Origin: Phyllobates terribilis
Taxonomy: Eukaryota
DNA: 64,000 nucleotides
Assembly: GCF_046119375.1 (NCBI RefSeq)
Contig: NW_027362772.1
Span: 250,108,001-250,172,000 of the forward strand
Reading direction: 5' to 3'
Numbering within the stretch: position 1 is the stretch's first letter; each line of letters starts with the position of its first letter. This document shows positions 19,531-54,679 of this stretch, piece by piece. The translations under genes were made by a program, and so were the position numbers. The notes under the pieces are model-generated. The model was given only the letters and a program-made list of their open reading frames with translations, did not search any database and was not told the origin of the DNA.

Positions 19531-20670
19531 TAACGGGGTCTAAGCAGGCACTAGTGTAAAAAAGCTGTACACAATGTAAGATAAAAGCAGGATAATGATA
19601 GCAGATAAAAAAAGCAAGTCAATTGTAAACTTGCTTATTTTCATGCTGTGTAATTAAACCAATTCTATGCAGTTATTGCCCAAGCGAAAGTGAAGCAATG
19701 CAGTAAAGCCACTGGACGCGGATGTCCGGTGCATGACTTCACTTCTTGCATACAGCAACTTTCAATACAGAGAGTGGTATGGCCATGCTTATTGTTCCCT
19801 CCTTTACTGTAGGTTTTAACTGTATTAACGCCATGCTGCATGCTAATATCGATTAAACATGGCAGGCACACAGAATGCCCAGAGGGATTCATATGAGGAC
19901 AGGGGTCACATCCCCCCTGCTCCTCTAGCTTAGTATGCTACTGGTCCTTCCTTTATATTTCCTACTGGTTTATCTTTTTAATCCAATAACAAAAAAAACT
20001 ATACGAAAAACTTCTAAAAAAAATGTGTATGAAATCAGTGATACATAAATATTACAATGACTTGTGTGAAGAGACTCTGCTACATCTGTGCATATATCCG
20101 TACGTCAGCTCTCTGCAATGTATATCACTCCCTGAAATGTTAGCGTCCACTTGGGAATAAAAATGATATAAACTGACCTTATAAACAGAGGATTTTTCCT
20201 TTTAATGAGAAGGTGTCACCTCTAACTATATAGGCAGGAGAAGTGCTGTACACACTCGGCTTCCCTGGCAGGGAATTTAATAGGATGAGTATAATTTTAA
20301 TAGCTTTGGCAAAGTGACTGTATTCCGGCATGACAAATAAACTTAATAGACTAAATTGCATACCTGGAAGTTCGACAAGTTTAGTAGAATTTAAGGACAC
20401 AGAAAACACAGGAATTCACGAACATGTTATAAATGACAGAACGTAGCAACACGGAGCACATTCATATATACAATGCATAAATACATTGAGTTTCACATTC
20501 CTGTAAAAATTGTCAAATGATAACATTACAAGCCCGAGCGGAGATTATTCTCAATGGTTATTAGCACTTTTTTCTTAACATTTGTATATTATTGCAGCAT
20601 CACTTTTATTACATACTTAAAGGAACACTCCAGGCAAAAGAGGACACGAGAGGGGGGCGAGCATGCATAG

Positions 20671-21860
20671 TGTAGCGTCGGCGTCCCTGCCTCCTGCTAG
20701 GCAGGGACGCTGTTCCCCTCACCTCTCTGCTCCGTGCCCGGCGGCTTCCTCCCGCTCTGCTTGCAGCGCCCGCTCTCCCCCGGTCACTGTGCTTAGGGCG
20801 CGCGCGCGCGCTCCCCCTCTCTTAAAGGGGCCGCGCGCGTCGCCCTAAGGAGTCCCCGGCAAATGGCTGGAGGATCCCTCCATATATAAGGCACCTCCTC
20901 CAAAATGGAGGTGCCCGAGCAATGTTGTTGCACTGTTCACTACTCTGCTTCAGCCCTCAGGTCCTGTTTCCAGTTACCTGCCAGTTACCTGCCAGTTTCC
21001 TGCCAGTTTCCTGCCAGTTTGCTGTCTGATTCCTGCCTGTTATCCGCTTACCCGTTTGCTAGCCTGAGGTCCGACGGTCTGCCTTCCGACTCCTGTCAGT
21101 CTGTCTATGGACCAGCTTGCCCGCTCACCTGGGAGCGCTCATCTGCTACCTGCCTGTTAGCCTACCTGGAGGCTCCGCCGTCACGTGCTGTGACCACCTG
21201 CCAGCCCAGAGACTCTTGCCCGCTCACCTGGGAGCGCTCATCTGCTACCTGCCTGTTAGCCTACCTAGAGGCTCCGCCGTCACGTGCTGTGACCACCTGC
21301 CAGTCCAGAGACTCTTGCCCGCTCACCTGGGAGCGCTCATCTGCTACCTGCCTGTTAGCCTACCTGGAGGCTCCGCCGTCACGTGCCGTGACCACCTGTC
21401 AGTCCAGAGACTCTTGCCCGCTCACCTGGGAGCGCTCATCTGCTACCTGCCTGTTAGCCTACCTGGAGGCTCCGCCGTCACATGCTGTGACCACCTGCTT
21501 ATCCAGAGACTCTCGCCTGCTCACCTGGAGCACTCATCTACCATCTGCCTGCTAGCCTACCTGGAGGCTCAGCCGTCACAGGTCGTACCTGCCCGTTTAC
21601 CCAGAGACTGTCCCGGTCACTTGCTGTGACCTCCTGCCCGTTTACCCAGAGACTGTCCCGGTCACTTGCTGTGACCTCCTGCCCGTTTACCCAGAGACTG
21701 TCCCGGTCACTTGCCATGACCTCCTGCCCGTTTACCCAGAGACTGTCCCGGTCACCTGCTGTGACTGCCTGCCTGTCTTCCCTGGTCGCCACCTGCTTCC
21801 TTACAAGGACCGCCCCCTTGTATAAGTTGCTCAGAGGTTCCGCCTCCCAGACCCGTTACA
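20671..21860 (+). repeat. 5' LTR (1190 bp) containing 99-bp x4 and 45-bp x4 tandem units
   Basis: 99-bp units start at 21119, 21218, 21317 and 21416; 45-bp units span about 21588-21765. Near-identical to the 3' LTR. Confidence 0.95.
20883..20922 (+). promoter_or_regulatory. LTR TATA box and predicted transcript 5' end (self-primer GCCCGAGCAA)
   Basis: TATATAA at 20883; GCCCGAGCAA at 20913-20922 is the exact reverse complement of 21863-21872 just after the LTR. Confidence 0.75.
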
Positions 21861-21873
21861 GTTTGCTCGGGCC

Positions 21874-22824
21874 ATGGAACCCGGTGGCACCCAAGCTCCC
21901 TCGCTCTCGGACCTTTGTCATGAACTGTCCCGACAGAGGTCCCAACAGGAGTCCATCCTGGGTCACCTGCGGAATGTCAATACTCGCCTGGACACTTTGA
22001 CTGCCCCACCAGCAACCACCGCTAGTGTCATGACTCGCAGCCCAGCTGCTCCGCTGCCCACCAATACCATAGTATCCTGCTCTGGAATCCGGCTTTCTGC
22101 ACCTCCTCGCTTCGGAGGCGACTCCGCTCAAGCTCGGGGCTTCATTAACCAGTGCACCCTGCACTTTGAACACCAGTCCCACCAGTTTAATTCCGACCGG
22201 GCCAAAGTAGCCTTCATCATGTCCCATCTCATGGGAGAGGCACTGGCTTGGCTAAATCCTCTATGGGAGAGAGGAGACCCTCTGGTGTCCGACCTGCCAG
22301 CCTTTCTCACGGCTTTCCGGAAGGTCTTCGACGAACCCGGACGGAAGACCTCATCCGCCTCATCTCTGCTACGCCTCCGTCAAGGGAGTCTCACCGTGGG
22401 CCAATATGCCATACGGTTCCGTACCCTTGCTTCGGAGCTGGCCTGGGATAAAGACGCCCTGGTGTCCGTCTTCTGGGAGGGTCTGTCCGGCCGTATTAAA
22501 GATGAACTCGCCGGTCGGGACATTCCTACCACTCTCGACGACTTGATTACACTTGCCACCCGGATTGACATCCGGTTCCAGGAGCGCGCTAGGGAGGTCA
22601 CCCGTGAGAGGAGGATTCCACGTCTAGTCCCTACCTTCCAGAGACCCGTCACTCCCTCTGTTACTCCCCAGGCACACTCACCTGAGCCTATGCAGGTCGA
22701 CCAGACCAAGATGGTCAAGACCCGTCAAGACTTACGTCGTGCCGAGGGGAGCTGTTTCTACTGTGGCAGTAAGGAGCACCGGATCCGTTCCTGCCCTGAG
22801 AGGTCGGGAAACGCCTGTGTCTAG
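21874..22824 (+). CDS. gag: Gag (capsid + CCHC zinc knuckle) of the chromovirus
   Basis: 316 aa. Sushi-type capsid PPRFGGD...FINQCTLHF...KVAFIMSHL; knuckle CFYCGSKEHRIRSC. Confidence 0.95.
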   Translation: MEPGGTQAPSLSDLCHELSRQRSQQESILGHLRNVNTRLDTLTAPPATTASVMTRSPAAPLPTNTIVSCSGIRLSAPPRFGGDSAQARGFINQCTLHFEHQSHQFNSDRAKVAFIMSHLMGEALAWLNPLWERGDPLVSDLPAFLTAFRKVFDEPGRKTSSASSLLRLRQGSLTVGQYAIRFRTLASELAWDKDALVSVFWEGLSGRIKDELAGRDIPTTLDDLITLATRIDIRFQERAREVTRERRIPRLVPTFQRPVTPSVTPQAHSPEPMQVDQTKMVKTRQDLRRAEGSCFYCGSKEHRIRSCPERSGNACV

Positions 22825-22866
22825 GATCGCTCAGAGAGGTCGCCCTAGACAAAAGTAAACCCTCTC
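22806..22866 (+). promoter_or_regulatory. -1 ribosomal frameshift signal (GGGAAAC + predicted H-type pseudoknot)
   Basis: G GGA AAC at 22806-22812. Stem 1 GTCTAGG 22819-22825 / CCTAGAC 22844-22850; loop GAGAGG pairs with CCTCTC 22861-22866. The -1 frame is open into pol. Confidence 0.85.
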
Positions 22867-22874
22867 CATCCCTG

Positions 22875-25800
22875 ATGCTGTCTGTTTCTATCTTCTGCGG
22901 AGAGAACCGCTATTTTGAACTGGCTCAACTTGACTCTGGAGCTGCTGGAAATCTCATCTCTCAATCCCTGGTAGAAAAATACCACATTCCCACCAAACCT
23001 CTGGCCGTACCTTTATCTGTCGCCGCCGTGGATGGGGGCCTCTTACCACATCCCATCCAACTCATCACCGAATCTCTGACTCTACAGGTGGGAATGCTGC
23101 ATTCTGAGAGCATCTCCTTTCATGTTCTGCCTGGACTCTCTCACGCACTATTGCTTGGCCTGCCTTGGCTCCAGAAACATGCACCCGTGCTTGACTGGCA
23201 GACCGGAGAGGTCCTTCGCTGGGGACAGGACTGCCATAAGATTTGTCTAGTTCCCGTTCGTCCTGCCCGTCCTTCTCCTACCCCAGCCAATCTGCCCGGT
23301 CTTCCGGTTCCCTATTGGTCTTATGCGGATGTCTTCAATAAAAAAGAGGCAGAGACTTTACCTCCTCATAGACCATACGACTGCCCAATCGACCTGATGC
23401 CCGGCTCTACTCCTCCCCGTGGGCGAATCTACCCTTTGTCCACTGCTGAAACCCGGTCCATGTCTGAATATATTGAGGAGAACCTGGCCCGGGGATTTAT
23501 CCGGAAATCTACCTCCCCGGCGGGAGCAGGCTTCTTCTTTGTCAAAAAGAAGGACGGCTCACTCCGTCCATGTATAGACTATAGAGGCCTAAACCAGATT
23601 ACTGTGAAGAATAAATCCCCCCTTCCGCTTATTCCTGAATTATTTGACCGTCTGAGGGGGGCTAGAATCTTCACCAAACTGGATCTCCGTGGGGCGTATA
23701 ACCTGGTCCGTATCCGTCAGGGGGATGAGTGGAAGACGGCATTCAATACCCGGGACGGCCACTATGAGTACCTTGTGATGCCCTTCGGTCTCTGTAACAC
23801 TCCTGCCGTCTTTCAAGAGTTGGTCAATGACATCTTCCGTGATCTTCTCTACTCCTGCGTGGTGGTGTACCTGGAAGATATCTTGGTCTTCTCTCCGGAT
23901 CTTCCTACTCACCGGAGGGACGTTCGTCAGGTCCTGCTCAGGCTCAGGCAGAACCACCTCTACGCTAAATATGAGAAGTGCATCTTTGAGCACACCTCTC
24001 TTCCATTTCTGTGCTACATAATCTCTCAGACAGGTCTACAAATGGATCCTGAGAAACTGTCTGCCATCCAGAAGTGGCCCCGACCAAAGGGGTTGAAGGC
24101 TATTCAGCGGTTCCTGGGCTTCGCCAACTATTACCGCCTGTTCATACCGCACTTCTCTTCCCGGACCGCCCCTATCTCTGCTCTCACCCGTAAAGGTACG
24201 AACCCCAGAGAATGGCCGCCCGAAGCAGAGGAGGCATTTCTTTCCTTAAAACAGGCCTTCCTCTCCGCCTCGGTGCTGCATCGTCCGGACGGCAACAAAC
24301 AATTCTTCCTAGAAGTTGACGCCTCCTCCTCCGGAGCTGGGGCGGTACTTACCCAAAAATCTTCTTCCGGAAGAAAGGTAACCTGCGGCTTTTTCTCCAA
24401 ACTTTTCTCCTCTTCTGAGCGCAATTATTCTATAGGAGACCGAGAATTGTTGGCCATTAAGATGGCACTGGAGGAGTGGCGTTACCTGCTCGAGGGGGCT
24501 CTCCACCCGGTAATAATTTACACTGATCACAAGAACTTGGCATATCTCCAGAGCGCCCAGAGACTTAACCCGCGCCAAGCCCGGTGGTCTTTGTTTTTTG
24601 CCCGCTTTGATTTCATTCTTCATTTTCGTCCGGCTGACAAAAAGATCAAAGCTGACGCCCTGTCCCAATCCTTTCTGGTGTCTGATCTTGAGGAGGAGCC
24701 TAAACACATCATCGATCCCGCCAGAGTAATGCAGGTAGCCCCCGTGGGCCTAAATCGTCTCCCTCCCGGTAAGACGTTCGTAACAGAGTCCGATCGGGAG
24801 AAGATTCTACACTGGGGTCACTCGTCTAAGCTAGCTGGGCATGCCGGTCAGAAAAAGACCCTCCAGCTTATTACCCGGCACTACTGGTGGCCTACCCTGC
24901 ACAAGGATGTAATTGACTTTGTTTCTGCCTGTGTGTCCTGCGCCCGCAACAAAGTTCCGAGACACCTGCCTGCCGGCCGCCTTCTTCCTCTGCCTGTGCC
25001 TGCTGCCCCGTGGCAACATATAGCTATGGACTTCATAACAGATCTCCCTGTCTCTGCCGGTTGTACGGTCATTTGGGTGGTCGCTGACCGCTTTTCCAAA
25101 ATGGCTCATTTTATTCCCCTGCCAGGCCTCCCGTCTGCTCCCGAGCTAGCTAAAGACTTTATCCGCCACATCTTCCGTCTCCATGGTCTGCCTCTCCACA
25201 TCGTGTCGGATCGTGGGGTTCAGTTCACCTCACGCTTCTGGAGAGCCACATGTAAACTGCTCGACGTCACCTTGGACTTCTCCTCCGCTTACCACCCACA
25301 GTCCAATGGTCAAGTGGAGCGGATCAATCAGAATTTGACCAGTTACCTCCGGCACTTCGTTAATGCCCACCATTCAGACTGGGTGGATCTCCTACCATGG
25401 GCCGAGTTCTCTTACAACAATCACGAGAGCGAATCTTCTTCTAAATCCCCGTTTTTTGTAGTCTTCGGTCAGCATCCTCGGATCCCTTTTCCTGTCTCCA
25501 CCTCTGTGGACAACCCGGCCGCGGAATCTCTCGTTAGCAAATTTTCCTCCATTTGGGAGAGTACCCGTTCCGCACTCCTTCAGTCGTCCGAGCGGATGAA
25601 GAGACACGCCGACAAAAAACGCCTGGATTCCCCACAATTTCGTCCCGGAGATAAAGTCTGGCTCTCATCCAAATATGTCCGGCTCAAGATTCCTTCCTAT
25701 AAGTTAGGGCCTCGGTTCATCGGCCCACTGGAGGTTATCAAACAGATCAACCCGGTGGCCTATAAATTGAAACTCCTGGCCAACTTACGGATCCCTAACT

Positions 25801-26291
25801 CCTTCCATGTATCTCTTCTCAAACCCGTGGTACTTAACTCCTTTTCCAAGTCTACAGGTACGCCTCCTGCTCCGGTTTCTGCTGAAGACGAGTTTGAGGT
25901 AGAGAACATTCTGGCCACCAAAAGGGTAAGAGGAAAGACCTTTTTTCTAGTGGATTGGAAGGGGTTTGGTCCTGAGGAGAGAACATGGGAGCCCCGGGAG
26001 AACATCCATGCCCCTCTCATCCTTGCTAAATTTCTGTCTGGCCTAAAAAAGGGGGGGCCTAAAGGGGGGGGTACTGTAGCGTCGGCGTCCCTGCCTCCTG
26101 CTAGGCAGGGACGCTGTTCCCCTCACCTCTCTGCTCCGTGCCCGGCGGCTTCCTCCCGCTCTGCTTGCAGCGCCCGCTCTCCCCCGGTCACTGTGCTTAG
26201 GGCGCGCGCGCGCTACCCCTCTCTTAGAGGGGCCGCACGCGTCGCCCTAAGGAGTCCCCGGCCAATGGCCGGAGGATCCCTCCATATATAA
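22875..26291 (+). CDS. pol: Pol (protease, RT, RNase H, integrase, chromodomain); reached from gag by -1 frameshift at about 22806
   Basis: LDSGA protease; RT with YLED in place of YLDD; VDASSSG RNase H; HHCC and DDE integrase; chromodomain EFEVENIL...FLVDWKGFGPEERTWEP. The frame runs into the 3' LTR. Confidence 0.95.
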   Translation: MLSVSIFCGENRYFELAQLDSGAAGNLISQSLVEKYHIPTKPLAVPLSVAAVDGGLLPHPIQLITESLTLQVGMLHSESISFHVLPGLSHALLLGLPWLQKHAPVLDWQTGEVLRWGQDCHKICLVPVRPARPSPTPANLPGLPVPYWSYADVFNKKEAETLPPHRPYDCPIDLMPGSTPPRGRIYPLSTAETRSMSEYIEENLARGFIRKSTSPAGAGFFFVKKKDGSLRPCIDYRGLNQITVKNKSPLPLIPELFDRLRGARIFTKLDLRGAYNLVRIRQGDEWKTAFNTRDGHYEYLVMPFGLCNTPAVFQELVNDIFRDLLYSCVVVYLEDILVFSPDLPTHRRDVRQVLLRLRQNHLYAKYEKCIFEHTSLPFLCYIISQTGLQMDPEKLSAIQKWPRPKGLKAIQRFLGFANYYRLFIPHFSSRTAPISALTRKGTNPREWPPEAEEAFLSLKQAFLSASVLHRPDGNKQFFLEVDASSSGAGAVLTQKSSSGRKVTCGFFSKLFSSSERNYSIGDRELLAIKMALEEWRYLLEGALHPVIIYTDHKNLAYLQSAQRLNPRQARWSLFFARFDFILHFRPADKKIKADALSQSFLVSDLEEEPKHIIDPARVMQVAPVGLNRLPPGKTFVTESDREKILHWGHSSKLAGHAGQKKTLQLITRHYWWPTLHKDVIDFVSACVSCARNKVPRHLPAGRLLPLPVPAAPWQHIAMDFITDLPVSAGCTVIWVVADRFSKMAHFIPLPGLPSAPELAKDFIRHIFRLHGLPLHIVSDRGVQFTSRFWRATCKLLDVTLDFSSAYHPQSNGQVERINQNLTSYLRHFVNAHHSDWVDLLPWAEFSYNNHESESSSKSPFFVVFGQHPRIPFPVSTSVDNPAAESLVSKFSSIWESTRSALLQSSERMKRHADKKRLDSPQFRPGDKVWLSSKYVRLKIPSYKLGPRFIGPLEVIKQINPVAYKLKLLANLRIPNSFHVSLLKPVVLNSFSKSTGTPPAPVSAEDEFEVENILATKRVRGKTFFLVDWKGFGPEERTWEPRENIHAPLILAKFLSGLKKGGPKGGGTVASASLPPARQGRCSPHLSAPCPAASSRSACSARSPPVTVLRARARYPSLRGAARVALRSPRPMAGGSLHI

Positions 26292-27119
26292 GGCACCTCC
26301 TCCAAAATGGAGGTGCCCGAGCAATGTTGTTGCACTGTTCACTACTCTGCTTCAGCCCTCAGGTCCTGTTTCCAGTTACCTGCCAGTTACCTGCCAGTTA
26401 CCGGCCAGTTTCCTGCCAGTTTGCTGTCTGATTCCTGCCTGTTATCCGCTTACCCGTTTGCTAGCCTGAGGTCCGACGGTCTGCCTTCCGACTCCTGTCA
26501 GTCTGTCTATGGACCAGCTTGCCCGCTCACCTGGGAGCGCTCATCTGCTACCTGCCTGTTAGCCTACCTGGAGGCTCCGCCGTCACGTGCTGTGACCACC
26601 TGCCAGCCCAGAGACTCTTGCCCGCTCACCTGGGAGCGCTCATCTGCTACCTGCCTGTTAGCCTACCTGGAGGCTCCGCCGTCACGTGCCGTGACCACCT
26701 GCCAGTCCAGAGACTCTTGCCCGCTCACCTGGGAGCGCTCATCTGCTACCTGCCTGTTAGCCTACCTGGAGGCTCCGCCGTCACATGCTGTGACCACCTG
26801 CTTATCCAGAGACTCTCGCCTGCTCACCTGGGAGCTCTCATCTGCCATCTGCCTGCTAGCCTACCTGGAGGCTCAGCCGTCACAGGTCGTACCTGCCCGT
26901 TTACCCAGAGACTGTCCCGGTCACTTGCTGTGACCTCCTGCCCGTTTACCCAGAGACTGTCCCGGTCACTTGCCGTGACCTCCTGCCCGTTTACCCAGAG
27001 ACTGTCCCGGTCACCTGCTGTGACTGCCTGCCTGTCTTCCCTGGTCGCCACCCGCTTCCTTACAAGGACCGCCCCCTTGTATAAGTTGCTCAGAGGTTCC
27101 GCCTCCCAGACCCGTTACA
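26075..27119 (+). repeat. 3' LTR (1045 bp) containing 99-bp x3 and 45-bp x3 units
   Basis: Follows the PPT AAAAAAGGGGGGG...GGGGGGGG; one unit fewer of each array than the 5' LTR. Confidence 0.95.
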
Positions 27120-28446: not shown

Positions 28447-28898
28447 TTAAATGTAATTTTCTGATGTGAAGCTGTTCACAGTGAGTCTCTCTGCTGCGAT
28501 CTCCAACTTTTACTTCTAATCTGCAAGGGAAATTAGCAGAATGTGTTCAATTTTTCTGCTGCGCCACCCCAGGGGAAACTAAGAATTACACGATCGATAC
28601 CCACTGATATTACGGCTTCCCGACATCTGCCATAGCTTTCCAGCATTGAAGCCAGACAAATGGTCTTTGGCCTCCTTGACACGTCCGTGTTTCCAGGATG
28701 TGTGGTATCTGTTTTTTTTTACGGATACCACGTGTACCCATGATAACCTGTGGTGATCTTCACATGTCCGTGTTTTTACACAGACCGTGTGTCCATGCAA
28801 AACACATGGAGAAATGTCTGGTTTTTTTTCGTCAGTCCGGATGACAAGAGCCAATGCAAGTCTATGGATTCATGAAAAACACGTACAGCACATGGATG

Positions 28899-30114
28899 TG
28901 ACGCGCCCCCTGGGCCATGTTCAAGAGACACCCGGAGCCGGATCTGGATAGGGGTAGTAGTCCGTGTGGCGGTGACCCGGTCCGTGCCCAGGGTGGTCAA
29001 ACTAAGTGTGTGGCAGTCTTTGTAGATGTTGTTTGAGTGCCGACTACGCCACCCGTTGATTGCGGCTAGGAGGCCGCCGCTGCAGAGCAGACCGCTGAGG
29101 CCGGTGGTAGGTTTGTGCAGCAAGGATGGTATAACCCCCAACGGGAGGGGTATGGCCTCAGGGCAGCAGATGTGGAAGTTGGTGGTAGTGATGGTGCAGC
29201 AAGGAAGCTCAGAGACAGGTGATGCAGTTTCAGGGTTTTTACTCACAGGTGTTGCTCCGGTCACTCCGGCCTTGAGTGACCACCCGAGCCGTGCTGCGTC
29301 CACCAGGTGTGGGACTCGGCCAACTCCCAGGCAATCCAGAGCGTGGTCCTGAGCTCCCTTCTCTCTCTCTCTCTGCTGGCCGTTCCCACCAGGGATCCAC
29401 CTTTGTCCGGCTCCCTCGGGCCTCTTGGTGGTAAAACCTTCTCTGGCTTTCCTGACCATATTCGTGGTGTGCCTTCCTGGTGGATGTGGTGAGGGTCGTG
29501 GCAAAACTTAACCACGACCTCCGGTTCCTGGCTAAGGATCATTAGCCTCTGCCAGTTAGGGTTCCGGTACCCGTTTCTGCCAACCCTTCACCCTTCTGGT
29601 TTACTTCTGGGATCTTAGGGTTCCCTCTTGTCTTGTGTCTCTGGGCCTTTCTTCCTCCTTCTCTCCACTACAGGCCTGGCCCTGGAGCTGGGCCCAGCCG
29701 GAGCCACAGCTCCCTGTCAGCCCTCCTGGCTGAGCTCCTCTGCTCTGCTCCTCCTCAGTCTGACTGACCCTGTCCTAAGATGGTGCCCACCATATATACT
29801 CCCTCTATGTGTGAGCCCAGGTGACTAGCACCCAATGGGCTCCTACCTCTATGCCCAGAGTCCCTCCCCTATCTGCCCCTACACTACTGGGATGTTCCCC
29901 CCCCCCTCCCACTCCAGCCAGGGACAGACGCTGTCGTACCTGCACATCTAACTGGTGGGAGTACCGTAGTTCTGTCCCCCGGAAATGGGATGAGTGTAGT
30001 GCATGCAGCTGTCTGAGCTCAGTCCCACACTCCATCCTTACCCGGGAGTGGAATACCACACCTCTGGAGTGAGGTGCAATACCCCTGTAGCAGCCGAGTC
30101 CTCAGGGTGCTACA
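28899..30114 (-). repeat. 3' LTR of the CSD element
   Basis: Direct repeat of 32565-33780; preceded in element orientation by the PPT CCAGGGGGGAA. Confidence 0.95.
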
Positions 30115-30700
30115 TTCCCCCCTGGTAAATCACAGCACGTCCTCGGGCTGTAAAAGAATAAAAACATACCAAAACATACAAACTTTTTAAAACATACACT
30201 AACATATAAAACATTATAAACACATATAATATGACAGGTAACTTCTCATATATTATTTTAGCAATATAACTTTTGATATAAAACTTTTCATATAAAATGT
30301 TCTTAAGCTTCTGGCCACTGTGCAAATTGTGACCAGGTAAAGGGCCACAGTCACTAGAAGAAAACAGCAGTTTTCCTATAAAACCGGTAGGGGGCGCCTT
30401 GGGAAGCGCAACTATGTACAGGTTATGGCCGCTCTCAGTCCTCGGCCAGGTAGAGGGAAAGAACGACCGCTCTCAGTCCTCGGTCAGTGGGGATAAGGGA
30501 TGGCTGCTCACAGTCCTCAGCCTGTGGGGAAAAAGGGATGGCTGCTCACAGTCCTCAGCCTGTGGGGAAAAGGGGCACACAGGTAACAGTTCACACTAGT
30601 CCCAACGGGGACCACACTTCACTTAGCAGCAATTCACATAACAGTTCTTGTAACAGTTCTCATACCCCGACGGGTAACTTTATACAGTTCTCTTTACCGT

Positions 30701-32590
30701 TCAGTGGTAACGATGCCCTCCTGCTCCTTCCTGAAGGTAATTTTCAGACCCGTCCGGGTCCTCTTGATCTCCCTCGTACCGCAGCTCTTCTTCCGTCAAT
30801 CGGTGCACATGAAGGGCGTATGCTCCTTTGGCACACTGATGCCGGGTGAAGGTGACCTCGTCACCCAGGTAAAGGTCACGACCACGGTGTCCCTCCGGCA
30901 GATGAGACTCGACATCCCTGCGGGTGACAAAGACGTCGCCGGGGGTTCTGTGATCCCTGATAAAGCCCCAACCGTGCTCCAGTTGGAACTTGATTACAGT
31001 CCCGGTGGCGCGGGGACCGTGGGCTGCACGGGGGTTTCGCCGGGTCCGGCTTTTCTGCTCCGCACTTTGGACCTGCAGCCGCTCCTCGCGGATCCGCCTC
31101 TCTCGCCGTTCCCTCTGAAAGACCTCCAGCTGCTGACGGCAGCACTCCGCACGCTGGGCTGCGGCCGCCCGGGTCTCTTGGGTGAACCCCATGAGGTTTT
31201 CGCCGGTGGGGTCCCATTCGAACTGCGCCTCCTCCAACGGGAGTGGGGTTATCTTGGCGGGCGCCGGAGCCGGGATCAGGGGCTCACATAGGGGTCTTTC
31301 CTTCCGGAGTCGGAGATTGAGGTACTCCGGTGGCCACTCAAAGGGCTGCCCATCCGGGCAAGTATGTTGCGTGAACAGGTCTTCACCCAAGGGTAGCACA
31401 GTGGAGGTTGAGGGCGCGGTGGTGGTAGCGGCGCCCGGATGCACCAGGCCTTGCGACCAGGCCGGTGGCACCCTAAAGGTGAAGGGCACTGTGGAGACGG
31501 CGGCGCCCGGGGGTACTCGGCCTTGCGACCAGGCCGGTGGCGTTTCCTGCTTGGCCGCGCTCAGGGTCAAGGCGTGTGACGTCACAGGGGGCGTGGCCGC
31601 GGCTCCTGCCGCTTGAGGCCTAGTTTGGAGCGGTGGCGGTGTAGCAACAGGAACGATCAGTGGGACTTCGGGCTCTGCGACGGGGAGCTGGGGCAGGCTT
31701 ACGGCTTCTGGGCTCGGGGTGATGACGTCCCCTTTACCTGCTTCCATCTCTTCAGCTCCTTCCACGGCGTCGTCTCCGGCCTTCGTCCCTCCTGCACCAT
31801 CCTCAGAGGCAGGCGTGCTCCTCGTTGTGGGTGGCGTCCTATGCTGGCGGGTTCCAGCCTGCAGGGCCATTTCTCTGCTCCACTCGGCCAGTACTTCTTG
31901 CTGCACTCGGGCCATCTTCCGAGCCAAGCCCTCCAGCGCGGTCTGTGCATGCTCCCGATCTTTGGGGAGCTGTGCCAGGATCTCCACCAGGCCTTCTGGG
32001 GTGGCGGCCTGCAGCAGGCTCCTGACCATCGGGTCGGTGCTGCCTGACTCTCCCTCCATCTCCGGGTGCGTTCTCTCCAGACTCCTCCAGGCTGCACCCA
32101 TCCTCTCTCTTTTGTTCTTGATCCGCCCATACTGAGGGCGGTCCTGGGGCAACTTGGTGATTGTCAGTTCCAGGGGCAGCCCTCTCACGCTGATGGACAT
32201 TTCTACCATTGCAGTCTCTGCTGGTGGGGGCGGTTTCCGCTTTTGGCGCCATTCCTGGACCTGGCCCACGATGGGAGGTGGCCTCTTGCCACCCTCTGGC
32301 ACGCCCATAATGGCGTCCGCTCTGCCAGGGCGGGAAATCGTCTCAGATGGCGGGAATTGTCTCTTTATGGCGGGAAACTCCGTGGATGGCGGGAAAAGGC
32401 TGCAGATGGCGGGCAAACGACGGGAAACGACCCGAGATGGCGTCCGATGGCGGGGACCCTCCGGAATTGGCGGGAGACTCCTTTTTACGGTAAATGTGAA
32501 CTTTTCTTCAGGCACGCAGTACCCGGTGGTTGCGGGCACGTAATCCTGCCGACTACGCCAAAGTTGACGCGCCCCCTGGGCCATGTTCAA
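30701..32590 (-). CDS. Retroelement accessory protein with a C-terminal cold-shock (CSD/OB-fold) RNA-binding domain and acidic tail
   Basis: 629-codon open frame; the first ATG lies in the LTR, and the internal Met at 32308 gives 535 aa. CSD at 30797-31012: TGTVIKF..EHGWGFI (RNP1-like) ..GDVFVT (RNP2-like) ..L.LGDEVTF...KGAYALHV. Preceded by an R/E-rich helix. Confidence 0.8.
   Translation of the reverse strand: MNMAQGARQLWRSRQDYVPATTGYCVPEEKFTFTVKRSLPPIPEGPRHRTPSRVVSRRLPAICSLFPPSTEFPAIKRQFPPSETISRPGRADAIMGVPEGGKRPPPIVGQVQEWRQKRKPPPPAETAMVEMSISVRGLPLELTITKLPQDRPQYGRIKNKRERMGAAWRSLERTHPEMEGESGSTDPMVRSLLQAATPEGLVEILAQLPKDREHAQTALEGLARKMARVQQEVLAEWSREMALQAGTRQHRTPPTTRSTPASEDGAGGTKAGDDAVEGAEEMEAGKGDVITPSPEAVSLPQLPVAEPEVPLIVPVATPPPLQTRPQAAGAAATPPVTSHALTLSAAKQETPPAWSQGRVPPGAAVSTVPFTFRVPPAWSQGLVHPGAATTTAPSTSTVLPLGEDLFTQHTCPDGQPFEWPPEYLNLRLRKERPLCEPLIPAPAPAKITPLPLEEAQFEWDPTGENLMGFTQETRAAAAQRAECCRQQLEVFQRERRERRIREERLQVQSAEQKSRTRRNPRAAHGPRATGTVIKFQLEHGWGFIRDHRTPGDVFVTRRDVESHLPEGHRGRDLYLGDEVTFTRHQCAKGAYALHVHRLTEEELRYEGDQEDPDGSENYLQEGAGGHRYH
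32542..32560 (-). promoter_or_regulatory. Primer-binding site complementary to the tRNA-Ser 3' end
   Basis: TGGCGTAGTCGGCAGGATT (19 nt) matches vertebrate tRNA-Ser(AGA/TGA) ...AATCCTGCCGACTACG-CCA; 4 nt downstream of the 5' LTR. Confidence 0.88.
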
Positions 32591-33780
32591 GAGACACCCG
32601 GAGCCGGATCTGGATAGGGGTAGTAGTCCGTGTGGCGGTGACCCTGTCCGTGCCCAGGGTGGTCAAACTAAGTGTGTGGCAGTCTTTGTAGATGTTGTTT
32701 GAGTGCCGACTACGCCACCCGTTGATTGCGGCTAGGAGGCCGCCGCTGCAGAGCAGACCGCTGAGGCCGGTGGTAGGTTTGTGCAGCAAGGATGGTATAA
32801 CCCCCAACGGGAGGGGTATGGCCTCAGGGCAGCAGATGTGGAAGTTGGTGGTAGTGATGGTGCAGCAAGGAAGCTCAGAGACAGGTGATGCAGTTTCAGG
32901 GTTTTTACTCACAGGTGTTGCTCCGGTCACTCCGGCCTTGAGTGACCACCCGAGCCATGCTGCGTCCACCAGGTGTGGGACTCGGCCAACTCCCAGGCAA
33001 TCCAGAGCGTGGTCCTGAGCTCCCTTCTCTCTCTCTCTCTGCTGGCCGTTCCCACCAGGGATCCACCTTTGTCCGGCTCCCTCGGGCCTCTTGGTGGTAA
33101 AACCTTCTCTGGCTTTCCTGACCCTATTCGTGGTGTGCCTTCCTGGTGGATGTGGTGAGGGTCGTGGCAAAACTTAACCACGACCTCCGGTTCCTGGCTA
33201 AGGATCATTAGCCTCTGCCAGTTAGGGTTCCGGTACCCGTTTCTGCCAACCCTTCACCCTTCTGGTTTACTTCTGGGATCTTAGGGTTCCCTCTTGTCTT
33301 GTGTCTCTGGGCCTTTCTTCCTCCTTCTCTCCACTACAGGCCTGGCCCTGGAGCTGGGCCCAGCCGGAGCCACAGCTCCCTGTCAGCCCTCCTGGCTGAG
33401 CTCCTCTGCTCTGCTCCTCCTCAGTCTGACTGACCCTGTCCTAAGATGGTGCCCACCATATATACTCCCTCTATGTGTGAGCCCAGGTGACTAGCACCCA
33501 ATGGGCTCCTACCTCTATGCCCAGAGTCCCTCCCCTATCTGCCCCTACACTACTGGGATGTTCCTCCCCCCCTCCCACTCCAGCCAGGGACAGACGCTGT
33601 CGTACCTGCACATCTAACTGGTGGGAGTACCGTAGTTCTGTCCCCCGGAAATGGGATGAGTGTAGTGCATGCAGCTGTCTGAGCTCAGTCCCACACTCCA
33701 TCCTTACCCGGGAGTGGAATACCACACCTCTGGAGTGAGGTGCAATACCCCTGTAGCAGCCGAGTCCTCAGGGTGCTACA
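32565..33780 (-). repeat. 5' LTR of the CSD element
   Basis: TGTAGCACCCTGAG ... GGCCCAGGGGGCGCGTCA in element orientation. Confidence 0.95.
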
Positions 33781-34238
33781 GATGCCATCCATGTGCCATC
33801 CGTGTGTTGTCCGTGTGCCGTTCGAGTTTAGCATTGCAAATTGTAGGAGAAGCTTTGTAATTCATTTCTTTCTTAATCCATATCGGAAAAACACTGATGA
33901 CACTGATGGTAAAAAACGGACACACGGATGACTCACTGACGAAAAACACTGATGGCACCGGTACTGGTATGTCATGTAAATGTGTGAAAAGTGAAAAAAA
34001 AATAATACAATGGTAAAAAAAAACACAAAAGATTATTTCGCCTATTAAATTTTTTTTTTAGAGGTCTAAAAGTAAATAATTGCCATTAGCGTGTCTGCAA
34101 TAATACAAACTATAAAATGATCATTTTATTTATCCAGCATGGTGAAAGTCATAAAAACCAACTAAATAACAATGCCACCGTTGCTTCATTTTTTTCATCC
34201 CACCTCTCAAAAAAAAAAATTCAAAAAAAACAAAATAA

Positions 34239-34730: not shown

Positions 34731-37561
34731 TAAGGTGTTATGAAGAGTTTTGGAAACGTTTTCATGCAGCCTTTTGATTAAACAGTGCGTAGTTTGGAGT
34801 GGATTCCATCAGGAGATACTTCAAAGTAGTGACATCAGCTTTAATTTTTTCCAACAATAGTTTTTCAAAATCGGAAATGGAAAAAAAAAGCTCTATGTAT
34901 GAACAGACAAGAGGATTAATATTAAACTCTATGGGAAGAATCTTTCAAACAACTTTTCAGGTGATTTTGTGTGGCGTCTTGTGGAACCGATCCGCCCAAA
35001 AAACTCTATCTAGCCAAAAAATAAATCAAAAAGTCATATATACCCCAAAATGCTACCAATGAAAATACCAACTCATTCCGCAAACAGCAAACTCTTCACA
35101 GCTCAACGGGAAAATCAAAAAAATGATATCTCAGAATTTGAGGAAACAAAACTAAATATCTTTTATGCTGTAAATCTATTTTTTTCTGTACCCGTCCAAA
35201 AAAACTAATAAAGATTTTTCAGTATACATACCCCAACATGGTGCCCTGAAAAACATCCTGTCCCAGGATAAAAACCATGTGCCTACATCAAGAGAAAAAT
35301 AAAATAAAGCTATGGCTCTCAGAAAGGTTTTGTGAACGTTGTTGACTAATGATGTGGAATTACAACGGTAAATCTTGTCATATTGGATGGGACTCTACAG
35401 ACCTTCAGGTTCCTATCCTATAATGACCATATTGGGTGCTGTAAGATATGATCTTCTGGAGGAAACCTGTTTTGTGGAGCTGTAAATCATCTGTCGTAAC
35501 AAAATTTACTAAATCATTACGAGGAACATTTCCAATAAAACTGAAGATTCACAATAACTTGTAGGTAAAATAAACTGTCGGAAACCCAACGTATGGACGT
35601 CCAATCTAAGTGTTGGAGAGCTTCAGGTCTTAGCTTTGGATAATGAAGGTTCTTAAATGAAGCCTCCATAACACGTGGAACTACTGTAATAAAAGTACTT
35701 GTCACCCTATTCAGAATCCCAGGAAAGGTCACCGATTTAGCTGACTCCTGAAAGAGTAGACAAATCTCCCGGATCCCACCGAATCATACAGAAAACAGTT
35801 CTACCGTATGGTTTCTTCCATGAATGGAATGAGATGATAGTTGCTGCTCATAAAATTTTATGAAGAAGGGAGGGAAGAGGAGAAACAGACATTATACTGC
35901 AGGTTCCATGGAATATTACGACCCACAACTGTCATCTCCTATCTCAACAATGGAAAAATCTATATTCAGAAAAGACAGATTTTCCCATTACTGAAATAGG
36001 AGATGGCAGACAGTGCTTAAAAGATTTTATGGAGGAGCTAAAGGTAGACACAAACATTCTGCTGCAAGTTCTCCTAAAACCACAGCTACAGTTCTCCATT
36101 GAACTTTATGAGCGCCAACTGTCATCTCCTATCTCAGTAATGGGAAAATTTGTATTTACGGGAGACACATTTTACCTATGAATTGAGTATTTTGAGAATG
36201 AATGATCAATCCAGGAAGAGTAAGAAGCAGATTTCTCTGATAGGATGTGTTACAAAGTTTCTTATTCTTACATGTACTATTGATTTATGAAAACAAATAA
36301 AACAATGGCTACCCTTCAAGCATCGGTTTTAGAGGGTGTGTCTGGTTTAGAAACCTCATTCTGAAAAGTCCTATAAAAAGTTTGATTTCTGAGTGGTTCC
36401 CTATTCAGGACACTTATATATTAGCTAGAGTGGACAATAACTAGAAAAAGTACCTTTTCTGTGCCCATGTTTGACACACAGCTCATTTGTGGCACCCCAG
36501 GGGTCTGGTTTCCACAGTAACAGCAATGTTATGTCTGAGAGCAGGTGGGAGGTCTCTTGGTCAGGAATCCTATGCATGCCACACCTCCTGCCCAGTCCTG
36601 GGAGGGGAAGAACTTCCCCTATATAAACCTGGGGCTGAGGCAGGGTTAGGAAGTTCAGAGGGAGAGTTCAGCCAGGAGGGCTGACAGGGAGCTGTGGCTC
36701 CGGCTGGGCCCAGCTCCTGGGCCATGCCAGAAGTAGAGACAGAGAAGAGAAGCAGCTATGGGAAGAAGCAACAGGAGCTCTGTGGGAGCAGTGTTACAAG
36801 GAGTCAGGGGCTGGCAGCTGCAGAGCTCGCCCTGACTGAGAAGATTTCTTACCGGACCCGGAGTCCGAGGCTGTGGGGACTAACTCCTACCCAGCAGCAG
36901 AATCCGTCAGGCAGGGGATTTCAGGTCCTCTGGCCAAGAAACCCGAAGGCACGGTCACACGCATGGGACCAGCACCGCCGTCGTGGAGCGGAAGCTACTA
37001 GAAGGCCCCGAGTCACCGGCCATACGGGTGAGCACCACACGGTACACTCAGGGACGTGGGCTACTTTTACCCGCCTCTAGCAAGGTAGCCAGAAGAGTAC
37101 AGTTAGCTGGGAAGGCCTACAACTCCACCTGGCCAGGGGAGATCCCATCTGCTCAAGGACTGACCAGGCCCCGATCGCTAGCAAGTACTCCGGGAGGGTC
37201 TATCTTTGTCACCAGTAAAGACCCTGAACTACACGCATCGTCTCTGAGTGGTTCCTGCTACCCCCATCATCCACGTCGGCTGCCCTGAGGCCATACCCCT
37301 CCCGTTGGGGGTTATACCATCCCCGCTGCACCATCTTTCCACCGGCCTCAGCGGTCTGCCCTGCAGCGGCAGCTCCAAAGCTGCATTCAACGGGTGGCGT
37401 AGTCATCCAACATCTACTGCTAGTAGACTCGCCACTTAGTTTGACTCCCTGGGCACGGACCGGGTCACCGCCACGAGACTACTACCCCCATCTGATCCGG
37501 CTCCGGGTAAGCCCCCGTGCACGCGATGCCGCACGACACAGACCCAGGGGTGCGTCAACTT

Positions 37562-37580
37562 TTGGCGTAGTCGGCAGGAT
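37562..37580 (+). promoter_or_regulatory. tRNA-Ser primer-binding site
   Basis: TGGCGTAGTCGGCAGGATT, 4 nt after the LTR; identical to the PBS of the 28899-33780 element. Confidence 0.88.
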
Positions 37581-38017
37581 TTCGTGCCCGCAACCACCGG
37601 GTACTGCGTGCCTGAAAAAGACTGTTCAAACTTACCAGTGGTGAAGATTCCCGCCATTCGTGAAGATTCCCGCCATCCGGCGCCATCTTTTGCCTCCTTC
37701 CCGCCATCGGTGGAGTTTTCCCGCCATCCGGCGCCATCTTCTGCCTTCTTCCCGCCATCCGTGGAGTTTTCCCGCCGTTGGACGCCATCTTGAAGACGCC
37801 GCGCGGGAAGAAGAGGGGCGTGGACTCCGAAGGCGCGCGAGAACTGAAGCCCCGCCTCACGTCCGGACGTTGCGTAAGGTCCTGGAAGGAGCCCAGCAGA
37901 CGCCGACGTCACAGGAGCGCGACGGAAGGTCCTCAACCCTGACGATCCACTGCGGAGCCGCGGCCTACGGAAGAGGATCATCGCAAGGTAGGCCACAGTC
38001 CACTAGGGGGGAGGAAG

Positions 38018-38419
38018 ATGTCGGATACGGAGGAGAGCTTCACTGCCTCAACCCCCGCCAGCGCCAGCGCTGCTGCAGTCATGCCTTTTACCATGCCCTA
38101 TATCCCGGGAGCAGCCTGGCTACCCCAATACTCAGGGGAGTCACATACCCTGAATGACTTTAGTGAAAAGCTGGATAGCCTCTTCCAGGTGTACCCCCTC
38201 ATAGAAGAGCAAAAAGTGAGCATCCTGGTGGCCCAATTAACCGGGGCAGCCCAAAGGGAGGTAAAGTCCTGGCCACCTGGGAGGAGGACTGTCGCAGAGA
38301 TACTAACCCAGCTAACCGAGGAGGAGCTGCAGTACTACCAATACGAGGAAAGCCAAGAGGACCCGGACGGGTCTGAGGACTACCCTCAGGAGGGAGCACA
38401 AAGAGGACATAGCTACTGA
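38018..38419 (+). CDS. Truncated Gag N-terminus (PNMA-like) fused in frame to the acidic tail of the CSD protein
   Basis: WLPQYSGE...FSEKLDSLF...QKVSILVAQLTGAAQREV resembles the start of a Gypsy capsid. It ends LTEEELQYYQYEESQEDPDGSEDYPQEGAQRGHSY*, versus LTEEELRYEGDQEDPDGSENYLQEGAGGHRYH* in the CSD ORF. Confidence 0.7.
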   Translation: MSDTEESFTASTPASASAAAVMPFTMPYIPGAAWLPQYSGESHTLNDFSEKLDSLFQVYPLIEEQKVSILVAQLTGAAQREVKSWPPGRRTVAEILTQLTEEELQYYQYEESQEDPDGSEDYPQEGAQRGHSY

Positions 38420-40022
38420 AGGGAAGTAGCGTGAATAAAGAGCTGTAAATAGTTACCCGTAAGGGTACAAGGACTGCTGCTAATTAAAATATGGTCCCCG
38501 TTGGGATTAGTGAATTGTTCCCCATGTGCCCCTATCTTAAACCAGGCTGAGGACTGTGAGCAGCCATTCCTTATCCCCACTGGCCGAGGTCTGAGAGCGG
38601 CCATATCCTGTAAATAATTATGTGTTTCTAGTAATTTATGGGAGTCTTTGGTGGATTTACCGGAAATCCTTTGTACATGGTTGGAGCGTAACCCAGGAAT
38701 GGACTAAAGACTGTTAAGGACTCGGGGCAGGACAGACCCCTACCTGGTTACCTCTCCCTGTTTTGGTGAAATGGACACCTTGCTTTTCTTCAAAACTGCA
38801 CCCGGTTGCGGACACGCCGTAACCATCTTTATGTGTTTTTCTTATTGTATTATTATTGTTTATACCTTGTTATGTTTTTCTAAAAATATGTTTAGTCCCG
38901 GAGTACTAAATTTCACTAGGGGGGAATGTGGCACCCCAGGGGTCTGGTTTCCACAGTAACAGCAATGTTATGTCTGAGAGCAGGTGGGAGGTCTCTTGGT
39001 CAGGAATCCTATGCATGCCACACCTCCTGCCCAGTCCTGGGAGGGGAAGAACTTCCCCTATATAAACCTGGGGCTGAGGCAGGGTTAGGAAGTTCAGAGG
39101 GAGAGTTCAGCCAGGAGGGCTGACAGGGAGCTGTGGCTCCGGCTGGGCCCAGCTCCTGGGCCATGCCAGAAGTAGAGACAGAGAAGAGAAGCAGCTATGG
39201 GAAGAAACAACAGGAGCTCTGTGGGAGCAGTGTTACAAGGAGTCAGGGGCTGGCAGCTGCAGAGCTCGCCCTGACTGAGAAGATTTCTTACCGGACCCGG
39301 AGTCCGAGGCTGTGGGGACTAACTCCTACCCAGCAGCAGAATCCGTCAGGCAGGGGATTTCAGGTCCTCTGGCCAAGAAACCCGAAGGCACGGTCACACG
39401 CATGGGACCAGCACCGCCGTCGTGGAGCGGAAGCTACTAGAAGGCCCCGAGTCACCGGCCATACGGGTGAGCACCACACGGTACACTCAGGGACGTGGGC
39501 TACTTTTACCCGCCTCTAGCAAGGTAGCCAGAAGAGTACAGTTAGCTGGGAAGGCCTACAACTCCGCCTGGCCAGGGGAGATCCCATCTGCTCAAGGACT
39601 GACCAGGCCCCGATCGCTAGCAAGTACTCCGGGAGGGTCTATCTTTGTCACCAGTAAAGACCCTGAACTACACGCATCGTCTCTGAGTGGTTCCTGCTAC
39701 CCCCATCATCCACGTCGGCTGCCCTGAGGCCATACCCCTCCCGTTGGGGGTTATACCATCCCCGCTGCACCATCCTTCCACCGGCCTCAGCGGTCTGCCC
39801 TGCAGCGGCAGCTCCAAAGCTGCATTCAATGGGTGGCGTAGTCATCCAACATCTACTGCTAGTAGACTCGCCACTTAGTTTGACTCCCTGGGCACGGACC
39901 GGGTCACCGCCACGAGACTACTACCCCCATCTGATCCGGCTCCGGGTAAGCCCCCGTGCACGCGATGCCGCACGACACAGACCCAGGGGTGCGTCACATT
40001 CATTTCCATAGGCACTGCTTTT

Positions 40023-48078: not shown

Positions 48079-48559
48079 TATATTGCAAGGCGGCGTTGTT
48101 CACACCGTGCAGTAAGTGAGGCAGTGACCCAAGCAAGTCCAATATAAACAGCTTTTATTTCAGCAACTCACGGGTTAACAGAAAGTCCTCCGGTTCGCAG
48201 TCGGGTTAACAGAAAGTCTATACACAATGGTTGCCGAGGGCAATGGCCGTGCCGGCCGCTCAGAGCCTGACAGGTGCAGAGCCTTCCCAGGCGTGGGTTC
48301 AGCCACCCTCAGTACTGCTGAGGTTTCCTGCTGTGCTCCTAGCAGGTTCCAACACAGAAAACAACACTAATCCTTAGTGCAGGGTTTTTAAAGGACTTGT
48401 GGCAAGAGCCACTGGAAAACCCAGGTTGGAGGGAGGAGGCCGCCCCACTGCCTCCTGTGACCTCCTCCAAGAAATGAAGGCCCTGCCGGGTTTTACTAAT
48501 CTGCCTTAGCCAGATAGCCTGACCAGGTGAATGCTCACCTTCATTCCTGCATTGCAGCC

Positions 48560-53530: not shown

Positions 53531-53560
<30 letters not shown>

Positions 53561-53561
<1 letters not shown>

Positions 53562-54634
53562 GTGACACCCCAGGGGTCTGGTTGCCACAGTGATAGAGAT
53601 ATTACGTCTGAGAGCAGGTGGGGGGTCTCTTGGTCAGGAATCCTATGCATGCCACACCTCCTGCCCAGTCCTGGGAGGGGAAGAACTTCCCCTATATAAA
53701 CCTGGGGCTGAGGCAGGGTTAGGGAGTTCAGAGGGAGAGTTCAGCCAGGAGGGCTGACAGGGAGCTGTGGCTCCGGCTGGGCCCAGCTCCTGGGCCATGC
53801 CAGAAGTAGAGACAGAGAAGAGAAGCAACTATGGGAAGAAACAACAGGAGCTCTGTGGGAGCAGTGTTACAAGGAGTCAGGGGCTGGCAGCTGCAGAGCT
53901 CGCCCTGACTGAGAAGATTTCTTACCGGACCCGGAGTCCGAGGCTGTGGGGACTAACTCCTACCCAGCAGCAGAATCCGTCAGGCAGGGGATTTCAGGTC
54001 CTCTGGCCAAGAAACCCGAAGGCACTGTCACACGCATGGGACCAGCACCGCCGTCGTGGAGCGGAAGCTACTAGAAGGCCCCGAGTCACCGGCCATACGG
54101 GTGAGCACCACACGGTACACTCAGGGACGTGGGCTACTTATACCCGCCTCTAGCAAGGTAGCCAGAAGAGTACAGTCAGTTTGGGAGGCCTACAACTCCG
54201 CCTGGCCAGGGGAGATCCCATCTGCTCAAGGACTGACCAGGCCCCGATCGCTAGCCAGTACTCCGGGAGGGTCTATCTTTATCACCAGTAAAGACCCTGA
54301 ATTACACCGCATCGTCTCTGAGTGATTCCTGCTACCCCCATCATCCACTTCGGCTGCCCTGAGGCCATACCCCTCCCGTTGGGGGTTATACCATCCCCGC
54401 TGCACCATCCTTCCACCGGCCTCAGCGGTCTGCCCTGCAGCGGCAGCTCCAAAGCTGCATTCAACGGGTGGCGTAGTCATCCAACATCTACTGCTAATAG
54501 ACTCGCCACTTAGTTTGACTCTCTGGGCACGGACCGGGTCACCGCCACGAGACTACTACCCCTATCTGATCCGGCTCCGGGTAAGCCCCCGTGCACGCGA
54601 TGCCGCACGACACAGAAGGCCCAGGGGCGCATCA
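53561..54634 (+). mobile_element. Solo LTR (1074 bp), same family as the 36488 element LTRs, inserted in (TA)n
   Basis: High similarity to 36488-37557; TG...CA; flanked by TATA repeats. Confidence 0.92.

Positions 54635-54679
<45 letters not shown>

Follow-up and report, generated by a model that had tools for sequence, protein, structure and literature searches.

The 64,000-nucleotide stretch of Phyllobates terribilis DNA analysed here (contig NW_027362772.1, positions 250,108,001 to 250,172,000; hereafter the window) carries on its minus strand, at 28899-33780, an element bounded by long terminal repeats (LTRs) whose single open reading frame (ORF) ends in a cold-shock domain (CSD). The two 1216-bp repeats (5′ LTR with TG...CA ends at 32565-33780, 3′ LTR at 28899-30114) differ by four substitutions and zero gaps, and the target-site duplication (TSD) GATG flanks the element at 28895-28898 and 33781-33784. 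An 18-nt primer-binding site (PBS; 32543-32560) lies 4 nt beyond the 5′ LTR, and a polypurine tract (PPT; 30115-30123) precedes the 3′ LTR. A first-pass annotation, made from the letters of the DNA, had described near-identical LTRs, a perfect TSD, a PBS and a PPT, and all four were recovered here. We presume that the PBS is that of tRNA-Ser. Within the LTR, an ATTGG motif lies about 40 nt ahead of a TATATA box. The TG...CA repeat pair, PBS, PPT and short TSD together characterize LTR retrotransposons, and show that the element is a young insertion made through the LTR pathway.

The stop-to-stop frame comprises 653 codons (30704-32662) and starts within the 5′ LTR, leaving about 590 bp of non-coding DNA on the 3′ side of the interior. 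The 629-codon protein first proposed, said to fill the interior, was overstated, as conserved ATG codons give 535 or 452 amino acids. The first of these, at 32308 in the context GCCATTATG, is kept across subfamilies and opens a reading frame at 30701-32308 (stop at 30701-30703); the second, at 32059, lies ahead of the constrained part of the protein. Over the first 70 codons, divergence is equal at the three codon positions (for example 0.36/0.34/0.36 for codons 31-50), with dN/dS of 0.40-0.76 and low dS over codons 1-83; the values for codons 111-130 are 0.39/0.24/0.54. This lack of codon-position bias points to a constraint at the RNA level in the leader (32060-32542), probably a cis signal, and makes the ATG at 32059 the likelier start of coding constraint.

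Substitution rates and structural models divide the protein into several regions. A conserved long helix (residues 118-155; 31844-31957), with dN/dS of 0.10-0.56 over residues 90-150, is followed by a length-variable linker (31394-31843) rich in Pro, Ala, Thr, Ser and Gly (61% over residues 156-305), in which dN/dS is 0.40-0.86. A charged helix of 45 residues (31037-31171) runs into the CSD in the AlphaFold model, with dN/dS of 0.14-0.28 over residues 306-430; a basic segment also lies ahead of the domain, and an acidic tail closes the protein (30704-30799). A Pfam scan of the 653-codon frame returned the CSD as its only family, with no capsid, protease, reverse transcriptase or integrase, and the protein contains no transmembrane-like stretch (best 19-residue hydropathy 1.02), in agreement with the absence of pol and env-like segments noted earlier. 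The modelled regions, which exclude residues 161-350, consist of single helices and one barrel, with no capsid fold. By eye the N-terminal helix had suggested descent from Gag, but this was rejected: hhalign to the Gag of the autonomous family described below gave probabilities of 0.1% and 0.5%, and a local profile scored that Gag below 0 and an unrelated control at 4.8 bits. The ESM Atlas gave no usable match to the N-terminus and gave scores all below 0.9 for the C-terminus, and a short-protein homologue search yielded none among 23 candidates.

The cold-shock domain itself (30803-31006) is a five-stranded barrel of the oligonucleotide/oligosaccharide-binding (OB) fold, with the ribonucleoprotein motifs RNP1 (W-G-F-I) and RNP2 (F-V-T). 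Pfam PF00313, whose gathering cut-off is 27 bits, scores 29.6 bits on the full frame (E 6.5e-7, residues 553-620) and 33.6 bits on its C-terminal part, and the closest sequence matches in the PDB are Csp and YBX1/2 domains. Applied with 18 sequences to the final 170 conserved residues, AlphaFold predicted (mean pLDDT 78.7) the 45-residue helix followed by the barrel, for which the best Foldseek matches are cold-shock domains (CspA 1mjc, TM 0.87, rmsd 1.8; YBX1, TM 0.77-0.80). The C-terminal CSD of the first-pass annotation is thus confirmed by the Pfam and AlphaFold checks that it had named. Among element-type domains, RNP1 W-G-F-I is present (with Y in one of 12) and RNP2 retains F-V.

In a tree of 34 rows, three of them YBX-like, the element CSDs form one group (90/94) with no supported sister, 18 of the 31 inner branches being open. 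Profile scores place YBX1 (39.8 bits) and CspA (40.1) level, with LIN28 at 16. One loop is 20 residues long in the element CSD, 17 in YBX-like rows and 13-16 in bacterial-type rows, a weak hint of a Y-box donor; a search for host YBX exons gave two weak matches. A decayed fragment of a YBX-like processed pseudogene was also seen elsewhere in the genome (L063, G000:C11:349412859).

The element belongs to a large family. We searched the genome assembly (10.6 billion bases), where candidates are not equivalent to copies and family counts are lower bounds. With the C-terminal 132 amino acids as query, the 150 matches scored out of 41,659 candidates were all 91-100% identical; 104 of 149 rows had open frames of at least 535 codons, and 7 contained a stop. 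A second subfamily comprises at least 97 matches at 97-100% identity to protein P0002, with frames of 709-828 codons, stops in 2, and LTR pairs 99.8-100% identical in all eight copies compared. An older subfamily has stops in 62 of at least 84 matches. Identity to the window protein lies between about 45% and 79% from one subfamily to another, and more distant ones carry a second PBS type. When the genome was searched with the Pfam CSD profile, CSDE1 sequences ranked first, followed mostly by copies of the element (30 of 150 matches fetched). Among the former, an intron-less CSDE1/UNR-like sequence lies in several pieces at G000:C1:734437889-734449260 (L043-L048), with frames that are open over 358-508 codons, and apparently represents a duplicated retrocopy; intron-containing CSDE1 exons were observed at C2:702.79-702.81 Mb.

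The architecture was followed across 76 loci of 6.5-10 kb, all selected as CSD matches and 40 also because their frames are open. In 65 of these loci a PBS of one or the other type was found 352-2421 nt upstream of the CSD, and in none was gag or pol found between PBS and CSD; same-strand gag/pol matches occurred in eight, all outside the LTR pair or flanking an insertion. A 4-bp TSD accompanies 27 of the 31 copies in which both ends were located (47 examined). The flanks of these insertions show a preference for TG-NNNN-CA: among the 27, the TSD is preceded by TG in 16 copies and followed by CA in 15. A CSD-only mini element (L073, L075) was considered and set aside: these are probably damaged copies of the longer ORF, as P0153 and loci with the same PBS keep the upstream helices.

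A profile search of 1.84 billion representative proteins, at E 0.001, gave 2929 matches, most of them proteins with several CSDs. The single-domain proteins whose similarity extends beyond the core, for which 10 of the 150 listed were looked up, are P0002 from Phyllobates terribilis, P0003 from Ranitomeya variabilis, P0019 from R. imitator, and P0005 and P0026 from Anomaloglossus baeobatrachus. Among the matches looked up, the close relatives of the protein all come from poison frogs, in libraries that under-represent repeats, and by these proteins the lineage spans Dendrobatidae and Aromobatidae, two families that separated some tens of millions of years ago. NCBI and UniRef label some copies as uncharacterised or 'CSD domain-containing', without transposable-element context. 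Three host gene models (P0153, P0155 and P0152, annotated as R3HCC1, UVS.2-like and a Harbinger-type nuclease) start with the element-derived helix or CSD, and are either annotation chimeras or real exonisation.

To measure selection, dN/dS was computed by the Nei-Gojobori method on 33 intact copies grouped by subfamily. The CSD gives 0.07-0.18 in each of the 10 comparisons between the five younger groups, at dS of 0.5-1.5; the window copy yields 0.08 against L110 (bootstrap 95% 0.04-0.20) and 0.18 against the old copy L089 (0.09-0.43), while four of five pairs involving the old subfamily are saturated. These between-subfamily comparisons indicate strong purifying selection on the CSD. Two outcomes that the first-pass annotation had named as fatal to its proposal, a dN/dS near 1 and mostly disrupted copies elsewhere, were therefore not what we found. 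The contrast between stops in 62 of 84 older copies and in 2 of 97 young ones further indicates that constraint acts during propagation, on the element and not on resident host copies.

A neighbouring insertion on the plus strand (36488-39996; 3.5 kb, LTRs 99.6% identical) is separate and young, has many near-identical copies and lacks a CSD. Its 158-codon frame joins a truncated Gag N-terminus in frame to an acidic tail related to that of the window protein. Through the gag of this short element, complete elements about 7.9 kb long were identified, which encode a PNMA-like Gag with a CCHC knuckle and a protease, reverse transcriptase, RNase H and integrase (PR-RT-RNase H-IN); all 150 scored matches in a search with the gag of this family are 99-100% identical. 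Internally, the short element is sequence of the autonomous family at 1-756 (96%) and 1057-1369 (88%), and at about 754-1062 it carries a patch 69-73% identical to five of the six CSD copies tried. On these alignments it derives from the autonomous family by deletion and carries a patch of about 300 bp from the CSD lineage. Mosaics among LTR elements usually arise when reverse transcription switches templates between co-packaged RNAs, with DNA-level recombination as another possible source, and a mosaic of the two lineages is what one would expect if their RNAs came together at that stage.

The autonomous family and the CSD element have in common their termini, the PBS, the PPT (the last 9 nt being identical) and a 4-bp TSD, present in six of the seven autonomous insertions resolved (10 examined). 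Their LTRs are about 80% identical over positions 872-1185 of the window LTR, on the U5 side, and the U5-PBS-leader region is 77% identical, a similarity that covers the first ~180 nt of the leader. At the protein level, codons 1-83 gave local scores of 29 and 39 against the leader of the autonomous family, with shuffle maxima of 39 and 37. An autonomous-type locus with the second PBS type best matches the CSD subfamilies that share this PBS (74%; one locus). No CSD was found in any of the 11 autonomous-family loci, and none fused to pol or on an autonomous element among these 11, the 76 CSD loci and the eight matches of a longer-protein search in which 7999 candidates were scored. An LTR search for a closer helper scored 40 places, at which the observed pairs were all about 3.6-3.7 kb apart. 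Lacking both a gag capsid and a PR-RT-RNase H-IN pol, the window element is shown by these shared cis signals to be a non-autonomous Ty3/Gypsy derivative, and the young autonomous family is likely its helper. This supports the satellite status proposed in the first-pass annotation. Since no autonomous CSD carrier was found among these loci and proteins, capture of the domain by an already non-autonomous element is as likely as its retention from a parent.

Other traces of related elements were observed nearby. A helper-type LTR lies at 53560-54637 of the window, and a broken pol at 57900-61200 (minus strand), 66-76% identical to that of the helper family, belongs to a related older Gypsy. Flanks akin to TG-NNNN-CA also occur at some helper insertions. 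Further from these lineages, the window contains a full-length-looking Gypsy at 20668-27041 (plus strand), with a Gag that has a Ty3 capsid and a CCHC motif (21826-22821), a pol frame of 1163 codons (22800-26288) and tandem repeats in its LTRs, and another young, pol-less-looking LTR element at 48559-53421 (1437-bp LTRs, 99.9% identical), whose 709-codon ORF (50085-52211) starts with a Gag-like DUF4939 match below cut-off and continues into tandem repeats of about 171 bp.

We propose, with a probability of roughly 45%, that the protein of this satellite Ty3/Gypsy lineage of poison frogs coats the element's own RNA in cis and so aids the survival or packaging of that RNA. The element would be transcribed from its 5′ LTR in the germ line, and its RNA would be packaged, reverse-transcribed and integrated by the Gag-Pol of the autonomous family. 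The protein, translated from the element RNA, would bind back to it through the CSD with a preference in cis, which is the least certain step, while the two helices could serve as oligomerisation or docking arms. RNAs encoding an intact protein would then be better shielded from decay or from attack by PIWI-interacting RNAs (piRNAs) and gain more places in helper particles, the protein acting as a private Y-box-like coat. Cis-preferential coating is favoured here as it best explains purifying selection in an element unable to move alone: a non-essential product acting in trans would be open to cheaters, and a cis preference would account for selection on the ORF. Host proteins provide precedent for a CSD protein acting on retroelement RNA, given that YB-1 supports HIV-1 RNA levels and virion output (PMC6040738), and FRGY2 masks frog oocyte mRNA (PMC7825780).

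Several observations weigh against this proposal. The strand-1 W and the RNP2 H, which PMC7825780 counts with the W, F and H side chains that are conserved and exposed in CSDs, are replaced in 12 of 12 element-type domains; kept instead are an R-D-V/I-E-x-H-L-x-x-G-H loop and an aromatic residue near the last strand. These two replacements in the binding face may give the domain an affinity or a ligand other than those of Csp and YBX. The idea of a retained accessory RNA chaperone consequently stands as far as a selected CSD ORF is concerned, its chaperone role being conjectural, and both expression of the protein and its binding of nucleic acid are predictions from sequence. The copies compared were chosen for similar proteins and open frames, a choice that depresses dN within families, and CpG decay may raise dS; the linker, at 0.40-0.86, provides an internal control for both effects. 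The match between window and helper LTRs, about 300 of 1216 bp at about 80%, suggests that a closer helper may exist or that helper use is loose. Finally, the young and abundant short derivatives without a CSD argue that the protein is not required for mobilisation. A broader scenario, in which the satellite has persisted in poison frogs for tens of millions of years with an RNA-coat or anti-silencing protein, exploits varied Gypsy helpers, helps to fuel the retrotransposon burst that underlies 10-Gb frog genomes and bears the first transposon-borne CSD, is, taken as a whole, less likely than not.

The thriving of CSD-less derivatives is also what would be seen if the protein were a trans-acting anti-silencing or RNA-stabilising factor that shields all related Ser-primed Gypsy RNAs, so that cooperation between satellite and helper expands the genome. 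CSD lineages do track autonomous families by PBS and U5 type, and both partners take part in a current burst, with most young LTR pairs 99-100% identical; accessory anti-silencing proteins of transposable elements are known, as illustrated by VANC (PMC13547354), and Gypsy RNA is abundant in Oophaga ova (PMC6278860). Nonetheless, a pure public good would be hard to hold at a dN/dS of about 0.1 across many subfamilies, and the ORF is absent from the 11 helper-family loci, which leads us to regard this alternative as unlikely. Were the protein instead carried into helper particles as a nucleic-acid chaperone, where it would help tRNA to anneal or strands to transfer alongside the zinc knuckle of Gag, the OB barrel and the basic segment ahead of it would be fitting equipment, as the CSD fold binds and melts single strands. 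The helper Gag already has its own CCHC knuckle, however, the ORF has no sequence link to Gag, and short derivatives replicate without the ORF protein, so that such a role appears quite improbable.

An action on DNA deserves similar consideration, whereby the protein would bind its own LTR or single-stranded cDNA and raise transcription or integration, as Y-box proteins do on CCAAT. FRGY1/2 bind CCAAT Y-boxes (PMC7825780), the ATTGG ahead of the LTR TATATA box could offer such a site, and the basic clusters could be nuclear signals. But CCAAT boxes are common in promoters, and U3 varies widely among the subfamilies and the helper while the CSD surface is conserved, making this very improbable. 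That host selection on co-opted copies explains the conserved protein is hardly to be expected: zebrafish Bik Gags have been co-opted, as PMC12067270 reports, and element-derived CSD pieces do occur in host gene models, yet the constraint lies between mobile subfamilies, old copies decay (62 of 84 with stops), and not a single old locus was identified that is both fixed and intact. The reading that we favour remains cis-preferential coating of the element RNA by its own protein.

In searches of PMC and bioRxiv we found no CSD encoded by a transposable element (TE), in keeping with the first-pass statement that no description was known; Dfam, Repbase and repeat libraries built for poison-frog genomes, which lie outside that search, may hold the family as a sequence. 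The passages searched in PMC11152451, PMC6278860, PMC6431247, PMC9289625, PMC13547354 and PMC12477816 do not mention a CSD in a TE, and PMC13583293 concerns a host gene co-expressed with an LTR, not a TE-encoded CSD. The arrangement is real, active and selected, and apparently undescribed. Non-autonomous LTR elements are usually non-coding or Gag-only, whereas here a different, host-type RNA-binding domain is under selection, in a large and active family of a genome known for recent Gypsy expansion. It shows a new edge available to a parasite of a parasite, names a concrete protein for testing, and opens to experiment the questions of how LTR elements evade germ-line silencing in amphibians with giant genomes, and how selection can act on an accessory gene of an element that cannot move itself.

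Of the systems already described, non-autonomous LTR elements such as large retrotransposon derivatives (LARDs) are alike in having two LTRs, a PBS and a PPT around a foreign interior, with no mobility genes and movement in trans; their cargo, as set out in PMC6431247, is not necessarily coding, whereas the frog element encodes one protein under purifying selection across subfamilies. The zebrafish BHIKHARI elements Bik-1 and Bik-2, chicken ENS-1 (both PMC12067270) and Xenopus 1a11 (PMC4585706) are similarly young and multi-copy, with a single long ORF between LTRs and no pol or env. The ORFs of these elements are Gag proteins with a capsid fold, while the frog ORF, in which neither Pfam nor profile comparison nor the two modelled regions reveal a capsid, ends in a CSD. 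The fixation of a host-type domain acting on nucleic acids in a TE lineage has parallels in the AlkB RNA demethylase of a Phalaenopsis Gypsy (PMC9289625) and in the ASY2-derived protein of ATLANTYS and VANC (PMC13547354). The orchid AlkB occupies an extra ORF in a large Gypsy element; the CSD ORF is the sole ORF of a helper-dependent element. The domain resembles those of YBX1, YBX2 (FRGY2) and CspA in fold (TM 0.77-0.89, about 30% identity) and in the aromatic-G-F-I of RNP1, and shares a long loop with YBX. It differs in being C-terminal, where that of YBX is N-terminal, in the replaced W and H, and in the 45-residue helix ahead of it. In its logic, and with no homology, the arrangement recalls the hepatitis delta antigen, a satellite virus protein devoted to its own nucleic acid; in contrast to satellite viruses, the frog element is an integrated LTR retroelement.

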